Below, piece by piece: positions 24,399 through 26,078 of a stretch of 64,000 nt of DNA. The stretch covers positions 64,001 through 128,000 of the IMG/VR virus record IMGVR_UViG_3300023174_000047; one strand, given 5' to 3'. Origin of the DNA: a virus. Its lineage: Duplodnaviria; Caudoviricetes. Made by a program: the position numbers and the translations under genes. How positions within the stretch are numbered: the stretch's first letter is position 1; every line of letters begins with the position of its first letter. The notes under the pieces are model-generated. The model was not told the origin of the DNA, did no database searches, and saw only the letters and a program-made list of their open reading frames with translations.

Positions 24399-24931
24399 AC
24401 ATGGGCAATAAAAATGCACCGCTAGGTGATGATGACATTGCATCCTCTATTACACTTACAGGGCAATTCATCAACAAATCTTCTCGATCACTTGCAAGGG
24501 AATATGTTGCTAATGTTTTAGGTCATGACAAGTTTGAAGACATTGCTGTTGCCGGGGATACAGACAGTGTGGTTGCAGATGCTGTTATACGCACATCCTG
24601 CGGCAATTTTACAATGGAAGAGTTATATGAATTATGTGAAGAAAGGGGCGGAACTACAAGTATTTCTAAAACCGGTCATGAGTTTCTAACCCCTTCATTT
24701 GACATTACAACCAATTGCGTCGATATGGATGACTGTACTATGCAGAATGCTAAGATTAGCAAGATAAGTAAAAGAAAGGTAAAGAAAGAGATATACAGAT
24801 TGAGAGCTGATAACGGCAAATACATTGATGTAACTAAAGATCATAGTTGTATTGTCATGAGGAACGGTAAACTTATAAGTGTCAAGCCTGTAGACATCAT
24901 TAAAACTGATATGCTGGTGATACAAAAATAA
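24399..24931 (+). CDS. gp43: DNA polymerase part B, exon 2 (to motif C GDTD) fused to an N-intein
   Basis: MGNKNAPLGDDDIASSITLTGQ...AGDTD followed by intein block A. Confidence 0.93.
24566..24928 (+). mobile_element. Split intein, N-terminal half (121 aa)
   Basis: Starts at Ser (SVVADAVIRT) right after GDTD; block B VTKDH (TxxH); ends at a stop codon. Confidence 0.9.
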
Positions 24932-24942
24932 GTATCACCAGC

Positions 24943-24950
24943 ATAAATAG
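24943..24950 (+). promoter_or_regulatory. T4-type late promoter of the endonuclease between the intein halves
   Basis: CATAAATA 5 nt before ATG 24956. Confidence 0.7.
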
Positions 24951-24955
24951 TACAT

Positions 24956-25954
24956 ATGATAAAAAATAAAATTAATGAAAATGACGAAAATACATATGTC
25001 ACATGCAGAGTGTGTAATAAAAAGCTTGTCAGAGTAGACGGCAATCATATTGCAATGCATGGACTTAATACCGCTTCTTATGATGTTAGATTTAACACTA
25101 CAAAAGAAGATAGAATTGCAAAAACTATAATCAATAAATTAAAATTTACCAAAGATATATCTATTGAAAAATATGGCCTTGAAGAAGGAATGAAGCGATG
25201 GAACGAATATAGATTAAAACAATCCTTAAAAAATACATTTGAGTATAAGCATCATAAATATGGCTGGACAAGAGAGCAGTTTGACGAATATAACCGTGGA
25301 AGAGCTTGTACCCGTGATAATTTTATAAGAAGATACGGAGATGAAAAAGGTTGTGCAAAATGGGATGAATATATAAAATTACAAAAATATGTTGGATGTA
25401 GTATTGAATACTTTAAAGATAAACTCGGTGAAATAGAGGGGCAGCAGAGATATGATGCAGTGTGCAGGAGTAAAATAAACAATCTATATAACTATATTAA
25501 AAAATATGGTGAAGAAAAAGGCATAGATAGATACAAACATTATATTGAAAAGAAAGCTTCTAAATCCTTTCATTCAAAAATTTCACAAGATTTATTCTGG
25601 AAAATACACAACAATACAAATAATCAATATTTTGCTCAAAAAAATAAAGAATTCTGCATTTATGACAATGTAAAATGTCGACCGTTTTTTTATGACTTTG
25701 TAGATACGACTAGTAAAAAATGTGTTGAATTTAACGGTGATATATTTCACGCAAATCCGCTAATATATAAAGCCGAAGATACACCCAATTTTTATAATAA
25801 AAATATATCAGCATATGATATATGGGAACATGATAATTATAAAATTAAAATACTTGAGAGTCTTGGTTATAGTGTTATAATTATATGGGAATCAGAATAT
25901 ATTAATGATCCAGAGGGATGCGTGAGCCGGGCAAAAAAATTTATTTATGAATGA
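24956..25954 (+). CDS. Free-standing Vsr/EDxHD-like homing endonuclease between the intein halves
   Basis: N-terminal CxxC..H...H; four repeats like KYGLEEGMKRW / RYGDEKGCAKW / KLGEIEGQQRY / KYGEEKGIDRY; C-terminal YDFVD..VEFNGDIFH..IIIWESE. Confidence 0.85.
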   Translation: MIKNKINENDENTYVTCRVCNKKLVRVDGNHIAMHGLNTASYDVRFNTTKEDRIAKTIINKLKFTKDISIEKYGLEEGMKRWNEYRLKQSLKNTFEYKHHKYGWTREQFDEYNRGRACTRDNFIRRYGDEKGCAKWDEYIKLQKYVGCSIEYFKDKLGEIEGQQRYDAVCRSKINNLYNYIKKYGEEKGIDRYKHYIEKKASKSFHSKISQDLFWKIHNNTNNQYFAQKNKEFCIYDNVKCRPFFYDFVDTTSKKCVEFNGDIFHANPLIYKAEDTPNFYNKNISAYDIWEHDNYKIKILESLGYSVIIIWESEYINDPEGCVSRAKKFIYE

Positions 25955-26078
25955 TATAAAATTAGTGAATATTGATTCTATTGAGATTATCAATAGTGAT
26001 GAGCAATATGTTTATGATATAGAAATAGATAGAGATAATGCTCACAATTTTTTTGCTAACGATATTCTTGTACATAAC
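25947..26078 (+). mobile_element. Split intein, C-terminal half (44 aa)
   Basis: Block F YVYDIEI, FFANDILVHN (block G His-Asn) followed by Ser+1. Confidence 0.92.

Follow-up and report, generated by a model that had tools for sequence, protein, structure and literature searches.

Cysteine-independent split inteins are scarce tools for protein ligation under oxidising conditions, and about four usable examples have been described in the literature, mostly derived from or related to a single insertion allele in the family B DNA polymerases (PolB) of phages. The Aes123 PolB1 intein consists of an N half of 120 aa (AesN) and a C half of 39 aa (AesC), is flanked natively by Thr at -2, Asp at -1, Ser at +1, and Val at +2, and has been solved as structure 9HTH (PMC11923092, PMC13014065). 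The cysteine-less split inteins CL and CLm were engineered from it (Bhagawati 2019 PNAS; PMC11923092; PMC13014065), and the CP21 PolB1, LCGC14 PolB2, and GOM-OPS-1 PolB2 inteins have been biochemically characterised (PMC12707363). For fractured genes, the passages of Dassa et al. 2009 that treat their layout report hairpins, often with the late-promoter motif TATAAATA, upstream of 15 of 16 endonucleases, as well as an overlap of 6-69 bp between the endonuclease gene and the downstream open reading frame (ORF) (PMC2677866); gp41-1, the best-known fractured-gene intein, is reported to be cysteine-dependent. Here we analyse a window of 64,000 nt, bases 64001-128000 of the 203,774-bp virus record IMGVR_UViG_3300023174_000047 from lake-water metagenomes (completeness estimate 96%), and describe in its polB locus a split intein, with an N-terminal half (IntN) and a C-terminal half (IntC) encoded on either side of an endonuclease gene.

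We propose that the 1513 bp at 24566-26078 are very probably a mobile IntN/endonuclease/IntC cassette in PolB motif C, allelic and homologous to the Aes123 PolB1 intein but with Arg where the motif NX His would be expected. We document the anatomy and homology of the element, its exact insertion site, its presence/absence polymorphism, the predicted association of its halves, and purifying selection. The sequence supports a naturally split class 1 intein at GDTD/S (the slash marks the insertion point) with a Vsr-like endonuclease gene between the halves.

Anatomy and insertion site of the split intein

The ORF at 24401-24931 reads ...VAGDTD/SVVADA..., with the codon at 24566 encoding Ser1. Block B of IntN is T90-K-D-H93, and the ORF ends in a TAA codon at 24929-24931 that is followed by a further in-frame TAA at 24944-24946. 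The endonuclease ORF shares the IntN frame and lies downstream of both TAA stops, while the IntC ORF opens at 25947 in another frame, with an 8-nt overlap (ATGAATGA) with the endonuclease stop, and ends its intein part in ...ILVHN, immediately before Ser+1 at 26079. The two halves are thus on separate ORFs that read-through cannot join, given the two TAA codons, the 999-nt endonuclease ORF, and the frame change. A single IntN-endonuclease-IntC fusion made by read-through or frameshifting was considered and rejected on account of the stop codons and the frame change. These coordinates bear out the first-pass annotation of the window, which had described a 121-aa N half with Ser1 and TxxH, ending in TAA with a second in-frame TAA at 24944, and a 44-aa C half with HN/S in a different frame, out of reach of read-through.

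Intein homology exceeds chance by a wide margin. The Pfam profile Intein_splicing matches the N ORF with its positions 7-94 (E 6.4e-9) and the C ORF with its positions 116-155 (E 6.8e-5), which are complementary portions of a single domain, and the best PDB sequence match of IntN is 9HTH, the Aes123 PolB1 intein (E 1.1e-8). All class 1 intein residues are present, namely Ser1, T90xxH93, the block F Asp, His43-Asn44, and Ser+1. In the alignment of C halves, the columns of the block F Asp, the block G His-Asn, and the +1 Ser are invariant, as is the stretch NDILVHNS. IntN contains five cysteines (positions 12, 24, 51, 57, and 95), all non-catalytic, and IntC none. The intein is therefore Cys-independent at its junctions, yet not cysteine-less, although the five cysteines may be dispensable. 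The earlier claim of Cys independence, made for Ser1 and Ser+1 at both junctions, thus holds, and the biotechnological use suggested along with it, although sound as an idea, has already been realised for this allele with CL and CLm (PMC11923092, PMC13014065, PMC12707363). The same annotation had missed the five cysteines, this prior tool use, and the absence of the motif NX His, to which we return below.

The net charge is +10 for the N2 lobe of IntN and -8 for IntC, and these opposite charges have the polarity of 'capture and collapse' split inteins. The predicted complex of the halves reached an ipSAE interface score of 0.83 in three runs, versus 0.00 for the best of three controls. Of solved complexes, 51 of 78 pass the same mark, as do 2 of 108 mismatched pairs. 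Contact agreement between runs was at least 91%, and the predicted local distance difference test (pLDDT) score of the partner was at least 77. Since solved intein complexes exist, this pass shows likeness rather than proof.

Intein-less alleles fix the insertion at DTD/S with Ser at +1, as the first-pass annotation had placed it: the homologue P0004 and the contig L009 both continue without interruption through this junction. The pol-c site of archaeal polymerases had been placed there two residues earlier, at D/TD, and this is correct, as published sites are YGD/TDS or YID/TDG (PMC549080) and some metagenomic PolBs carry both inteins. In 22 relatives (P0126, P0128, P0130, P0132, P0133, and others), motif C contains two inteins with only Thr-Asp between them (...HN/TD/S...), the first contiguous at the pol-c site with Thr+1 and the second at DTD/S, mostly split and in several cases contiguous. 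The occupation of both sites in tandem shows that pol-c and DTD/S are distinct sites.

The same arrangement was found in cultured phages by tblastn against phage genomes. The annotation of Aes508 gives the order gp43A, a Seg-like GIY-YIG gene, gp43B-1 with a group I intron and the N-intein, a VSR-domain ORF, and gp43B-2 with the C-intein, and Tenacibaculum phage PTm1 and Campylobacter phage CP21 have a similar layout. The junctions DTD/SVV(G or A)D... and ...NDILVHN/S align exactly in the window, Aes508, PTm1, and CP21, at an identity of 31-40% between the window IntN and the N halves of Aes508, CP21, and PTm1 and of 36-38% between the starts of the C-half ORFs.

Beyond cultured phages, a HMMER search over 1.84 billion representative proteins gave 608 matches at E <=0.001, and our family statistics refer to the 143 full-length IntN alignments obtained from the best 150 of these. 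Ser1 is present in 143/143 relatives and is preceded by DTD in 101 and by NTD in 22, the NTD relatives being the polymerases with two motif C inteins. Block B has T in 141/143 and H in 143/143. The protein stops within 25 residues of the IntN end in 105/143, which are therefore split, and continues for 300-345 residues in 20. Of the proteins extending beyond IntN, about 27 represent mini-inteins at DTD/S, either contiguous or partial, with ...HN/S following 42-58 residues on. The allele is common in metagenomes, with more than 100 clusters at 50% identity that are mostly split, and these represent a large reservoir for tool discovery.

The endonuclease gene and probable mobility of the cassette

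Two metagenomic contigs bear on mobility. L006 is a 73.8-kb contig, syntenic with the window at ~71% nucleotide identity, and L009 is a 668-bp contig 99% identical to the flanks in L006 but precisely without L006:4620-6123, a 1504-bp cassette, so that it reads VAGDTDSVYLC. Judging by scaffold names, both apparently come from the same sampling campaign. Near-identical phages with and without the whole cassette are the pattern expected of a homing element, and this polymorphism points to recent mobility; precise loss may be an alternative source of the intein-less alleles. In our preferred interpretation, near-identical cassette-bearing and cassette-free alleles document a mobility that is ongoing.

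The product of the gene between the halves (332 aa) is composed of helical KYG repeats over its N-terminal two thirds and a Vsr-like domain at its C terminus (residues ~205-332). It shares 39% identity with the Aes508 VSR-domain ORF (E 2e-57). At E <=1e-5, 138 homologues were retrieved from metagenomes, and 48 of them served to build an AlphaFold2 model with a pLDDT of 94. Structural alignment of residues ~205-332 with VIA-align matched Vsr (1cw0: Z 10.8, root-mean-square deviation (rmsd) 3.3, 114 aligned residues; 1vsr: Z 10.1) and the catalytic domain of I-Bth0305I (3r3p: Z 9.7, rmsd 3.1, 93/97 residues), with scores well above those of the next unrelated folds. Foldseek, run on the full-length model, found nothing at E <=0.001, with probabilities of 0.99 and 0.94 for Vsr-like structures, the E-values being poor because the helical repeats dilute the full-length score. 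A search of the endonuclease sequence against the PDB returned a chance match only, and no sequence-level match to I-Bth0305I. Across the 48 homologues, two residues never vary (D247 and H265) and three are nearly invariant (E258, D262, and D293). These residues fit the composite EDxHD motif (PMC3239194), with a tentative mapping onto Vsr D51/H69/D97 that rests on spacing.

Ahead of the nuclease domain, residues ~60-200 (24956-25560) comprise about five tandem helical repeats of ~30 aa with the pattern (K/R)YG-x-E-x-G...(W/Y)-x-x-Y. KYG-type repeats are conserved in the Aes508 homologue and modelled at high confidence, and presumably bind DNA. Additionally, a 274-nt freshwater metatranscriptome contig (X17) is 100% identical to 25309-25582 inside the gene. 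It is a weak hint of expression, as DNA carry-over is possible, and it covers no intron splice junction.

Contigs of four other public runs, in addition to one from ENA, were compared with the region. The listed changes in the variant from run X4, a count that leaves out four further differences, are (synonymous/nonsynonymous) 3/2 in IntN, 1/0 in IntC, 5/0 in the C-extein, and 12/9 in the endonuclease gene. This pattern indicates that the intein halves are under purifying selection and that the nuclease is less constrained. The far greater number of amino-acid changes in the endonuclease than in the intein and exteins of such close variants, together with the existence of endonuclease-free contiguous mini-inteins at the same site, would also suit a cassette that splices but whose endonuclease is domesticated or decaying and no longer mobile, with the intein-less alleles arising from precise loss. 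We consider this unlikely: D247, E258, D262, H265, and D293 are all present, the window, X4, and L006 each have an uninterrupted ORF, the ratio of nonsynonymous to synonymous substitution rates, roughly estimated, is well below 1, and the RNA-library contig within the gene is weak evidence in the same direction.

The junctions of the endonuclease gene have features consistent with regulation. At 24910-24945, a hairpin with a perfect 14-bp stem (0/200 shuffles were as good) places the IntN stop codon (24929-24931) in its loop and the second TAA (24944) at its 3' foot, where a CATAAATA motif (24942-24949) also lies, ten bases before the endonuclease ATG. The arms of the hairpin are identical in L006 despite the ~71% overall identity, and the loop and surroundings differ. 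At the other end of the gene, the 8-nt overlap with the IntC ORF is inside the published 6-69 bp range. By analogy with fractured genes, the hairpin probably restrains translation of the endonuclease, and the overlap probably couples translation of IntC. Together, the fold, the homologues, the hairpin, and the overlap support the earlier proposal of a fractured-gene layout with an EDxHD/Vsr-like nuclease, as this layout is described in those passages of Dassa et al.

Proposed splicing pathway and the motif NX residue

For the window copy, we infer splicing, endonuclease activity, and regulation from the sequence, and the following pathway is therefore conditional. The gp43B-1 message would lose its group I intron, giving a 93-aa N-extein fused to the 121-aa IntN, and the gp43B-2 ORF would give the 44-aa IntC fused to a 276-aa C-extein; with ATGAATGA shared between the gp43B-2 start and the endonuclease stop, gp43B-2 and the endonuclease are probably coupled in translation. 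The acidic IntC (-8) would next be captured by the basic N2 lobe (+10) on the IntN side, and the halves would fold into one HINT domain. Class 1 oxyester splicing would proceed through an N-O shift at Ser1, transesterification to Ser+1, cyclisation of Asn44, and an O-N shift, rebuilding ...VAGDTDSVYLS... in a 369-aa gp43B that would pair non-covalently with gp43A. In parallel, the Vsr-like endonuclease would cut intein-less polB alleles, copying the whole cassette into them, and the hairpin over the IntN stop would limit endonuclease translation. As this is the sole PolB of the phage and the insertion splits catalytic motif C, splicing is very probably required.

Several points weigh against this interpretation, among them the motif NX residue. 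In Ser1/Ser+1 inteins, the motif NX His, preceded by Lys or Arg, is highly conserved, and its change to Ala abolished splicing or nearly so in three Ser1 inteins (PMC10189870). The window has K69-R70 where this His is expected, and His occupies the position in 140/143 relatives, with Arg in 3/143 (P0002, P0204, and P0234) and in L006. Moreover, solved intein structures memorised by the predictor may explain why the complex passes. The Aes parent splices at only ~30% efficiency in vitro, and efficiency is thus not readable from sequence. As for regulation, no hairpin was found in the relative L005 or in Aes508, where the sequence folds no better than shuffles, so that this feature is not family-wide, and a role for the late promoter and hairpin is argued purely by analogy.

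The Arg at motif NX is not a read error, since its codon, AGA, differs from the His codons CAY at all three positions. Arg is shared by L006 and P0002 (57-66% identity to the window), whereas P0003, Aes508, PTm1, and CP21 have His. The more distant Arg types are P0234 and P0204, the latter being a mini-intein that lies contiguously within a polymerase of 1029 aa. In an unrooted FastTree phylogeny of 144 IntN sequences, the Arg types are scattered, a pattern compatible with either a single or several origins of NX Arg, with a support of 0.86 for the window together with P0204 within a 72-tip clade. The predicted complex places the stretch around Arg70 in contact with IntC residues 20-25, that is, the block F strand with Asp24. 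His38 and Cys95 are both present in 4/4 Arg types of the profile alignment (the window, P0002, P0204, and P0234), and likewise in L006, which was aligned separately, compared with 38% (His38) and 13% (Cys95) of His-type relatives. As the Arg types represent about three independent lineages, this association is not significant and is only a hint.

The loss of a His reported to be critical in Ser1 inteins also raises the possibility that the split intein has decayed, its halves binding and holding the polymerase pieces together without splicing, as in the fragmented NrdA of phage Aeh1, or that the polymerase is a pseudogene. The gene is in addition broken by the GIY-YIG gene and the intron, and non-covalent assembly is thus tolerated at one site. 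However, Ser1, T90xxH93, the block F Asp, His43-Asn44, and Ser+1 are intact, and three Arg-clade members retain these residues at identities of only 57-66%, with purifying selection evident among population variants. If left unspliced, a 165-aa domain separating DTD from the Ser of motif C would be expected to obstruct the active site, and the genome encodes no other PolB. Finally, NX Arg recurs in distant lineages, including the P0204 mini-intein, which must splice for its one-piece polymerase to work. We therefore regard decay as quite improbable.

Because the intein is otherwise intact and is conserved in an essential gene, we argue that the Arg form probably splices, and we find it somewhat probable that a small group of Ser1/Ser+1 PolB inteins splices without the NX His, using Arg70 in place of what is currently seen as the hallmark catalytic residue of cysteine-independent inteins. 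The replacement of this His by Arg is the only point of mechanistic, specialist interest in the window intein. If active, the Arg form would represent a second way of activating Ser1, and its ~31% identity to the Aes intein would make orthogonality to the CL and CLm inteins probable. In this regard, the retention of NX Arg in a diverged clade within an essential gene offers a natural test of the indispensability of the histidine for Ser1 chemistry.

Authenticity of the stop codons and the frame change

The protein is present on four contigs, one of which is a separately assembled ENA scaffold with 100% identity over 3.7 kb. Contigs from run X2, which belongs to a different study, are identical across the stops and the hairpin. 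The X4 variant, on a 46-kb contig, matches 24401-26350 at 98% identity, has no indels, and keeps both TAA codons. L006 has the identical three-ORF layout, with a 698-aa N part ending in IntN, then a 56%-identical endonuclease gene, and then an IntC ORF. The possibility that the stops and the frame change are sequencing errors in a contiguous intein, which the first-pass annotation had set as its refuting test, is ruled out by the ENA, X2, and X4 contigs and L006. A sequencing or assembly artefact hiding a contiguous intein with an in-frame endonuclease domain, for which we found no support other than the endonuclease ORF happening to be in the IntN frame, can be set aside almost entirely in light of this identity across independent assemblies and studies, the indel-free variant with both TAA codons intact, the three separate ORFs in each of L006, Aes508, PTm1, and CP21, and the 105/143 relatives that terminate within 25 aa of the IntN end.

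The polymerase locus

The polB locus of this ~204-kb freshwater phage spans 21622-26909 in pieces (Table 1) and encodes the sole family B DNA polymerase of a genome estimated to be 96% complete. A megablast of 21600-27000 against a phage collection gave no match, and the genome is an uncultured IMG/VR record.

Table 1. Features of the polB locus, with positions in the window
Feature	Positions	Strand	Evidence
gp43A, N-terminal PolB subunit, 498 aa (exonuclease domain + motif A)	21622-23118	+	Pfam DNA_pol_B_exo1 E 2.5e-18, DNA_pol_B E 5.9e-13
Putative GIY-YIG homing endonuclease gene, antisense, between gp43A and gp43B	23104-23985	-	Weak Pfam LEM-3 GIY-YIG match, E 0.0085
gp43B exon 1, ends in motif B ...KIFINSVYG + T	24046-24157	+	Pfam DNA_pol_B E 4.8e-4; intron-less X4 and X7 alleles fix the end
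Group I intron, no ORF, 241 nt	24158-24398	+	Rfam RF00028, 84.9 bits, E 3.9e-21
gp43B exon 2, N-extein up to ...VAGDTD (first half of motif C)	24399-24565	+	Translation; intein-less homologue P0004, VAGDTDSVYLC
IntN, 121 aa, Ser1, T90xxH93, Arg70 at motif NX	24566-24928	+	Pfam PF14890 E 6.4e-9; PDB 9HTH E 1.1e-8
RNA hairpin, 14-bp stem	24910-24945	+	Minimum free energy -28.2 kcal/mol, z -10.8
Free-standing homing endonuclease gene, 332 aa	24956-25954	+	Aes508 VSR-domain ORF, 39% identity; Phrog_22677 E 9e-66
IntC, 44 aa, block F VYDIE (Asp24), block G His43-Asn44	25947-26078	+	Pfam PF14890 positions 116-155, E 6.8e-5
C-extein from Ser+1 (SVYLS..., second half of motif C) to the PolB end, stop codon included	26079-26909	+	Phrog_262 DNA polymerase E 5.6e-46

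The position of gp43A, which lies outside the intein cassette, agrees with that of the 'split DNA polymerase gp43A' of Aes508. The putative GIY-YIG gene lies tail-to-tail with gp43A, with a 15-nt overlap, and resembles the Seg-like gene of Aes508 in repeats only. L006 is without the GIY-YIG gene and without the intron, its N part being contiguous. Upstream of 24109, the X4 and X7 sequences diverge from the window, which suggests that the gp43A/gp43B split is probably variable too. The group I intron interrupts motif B. In the intron-less DNA alleles of X4 and X7, this site reads AAT AGC GTT TAT GGT TAT ATG GGC (NSVYGYMGN), with several synonymous differences beside the exon junction, and the intron is thus also polymorphic in the population. 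The C-extein shares 70% identity with the C part of L006 and is collinear with the intein-less P0004. Overall, the polB locus is a clear case of one essential gene rebuilt by three routes.

Outside the window, we noted a possible second fractured gene at L012:2-2958 (genome G000:C1:134448-137404). Here, a 514-aa ORF is directly preceded by a long ORF that combines KYG repeats with a Vsr-like motif (VAIEVNGLIWHS). The first ~113 residues of the 514-aa ORF resemble a long C-terminal intein part ending in ...VLCHQ/CLILDELAF, which recalls a terminase Walker B. The candidate, which had a weak Pfam intein match (E 2e-4), may be a TerL-type intein with an atypical split, a terminal Gln, and Cys+1.

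Comparison with known systems

The archaeal/Mimivirus pol-c allele occupies the same polymerase motif C, and its inteins are mostly Ser1, as at the window site. However, pol-c inteins are inserted at YxD/TD with Thr+1, and the window insertion lies two residues downstream with Ser+1, so that it is not a pol-c intein.

I-Bth0305I (3R3P; PMC3239194) resembles the window endonuclease in three respects: a C-terminal Vsr-like fold, acidic and His residues that are conserved, and a repeat region at the N terminus. It differs in that it is encoded in a recA intron, whereas the enzyme of the window carries about five KYG-type helical units.

Fractured genes such as gp41-1, NrdJ-1, IMPDH-1, and others share with the window the layout in which split halves flank a free-standing gene for a Vsr-like endonuclease, the hairpin and late-promoter-like ATAAATA ahead of the endonuclease start, and an endonuclease 3' end that runs into the downstream ORF, all as set out in the layout passages of Dassa et al. 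(PMC2677866). Among the split-intein hosts named in those passages there is no B-type polymerase, and gp43 appears there as a gene split without an intein.

The CP21, LCGC14, and GOM-OPS-1 inteins are alike in being Ser1/Ser+1, typically split, and located in the PolB of T4-like phages or metagenomes. The CP21 intein has the same junctions as the window at 34% identity and keeps the NX His, and the LCGC14 and GOM-OPS-1 inteins are likened to the window intein by their description. All three have been tested in the laboratory, and the window copy is known from sequence.

The nearest relative is the Aes123 PolB1 intein of the Aeromonas salmonicida T4-like phages Aes123, Aes508, and others. Both have a gp43-type PolB as host gene, the DTD/SVY site, Ser1/Ser+1, and a split at the endonuclease site into halves of similar size (120+39 aa versus 121+44 aa here). 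The Aes508 locus also has a Vsr-type endonuclease between the halves, the gp43A/B split, a GIY-YIG gene, and an upstream group I intron. On the other hand, IntN identity is only ~31%, and Aes has His68 at motif NX where the window has Arg70. The Aes intein is cysteine-free according to its published 'cysteine-less' description, and the aligned intein sequences of Aes508 show no cysteine, in contrast to the five of the window IntN. In addition, the GIY-YIG gene is antisense in the window, unlike in Aes508, and a hairpin covers the IntN stop in the window but not in Aes508. The window copy thus adds one more natural sequence to those available, an incremental gain, and the element joins the phage PolB split inteins of the Aes123 PolB1 type with a Vsr-like homing endonuclease, a family that is well described and already a source of tools.

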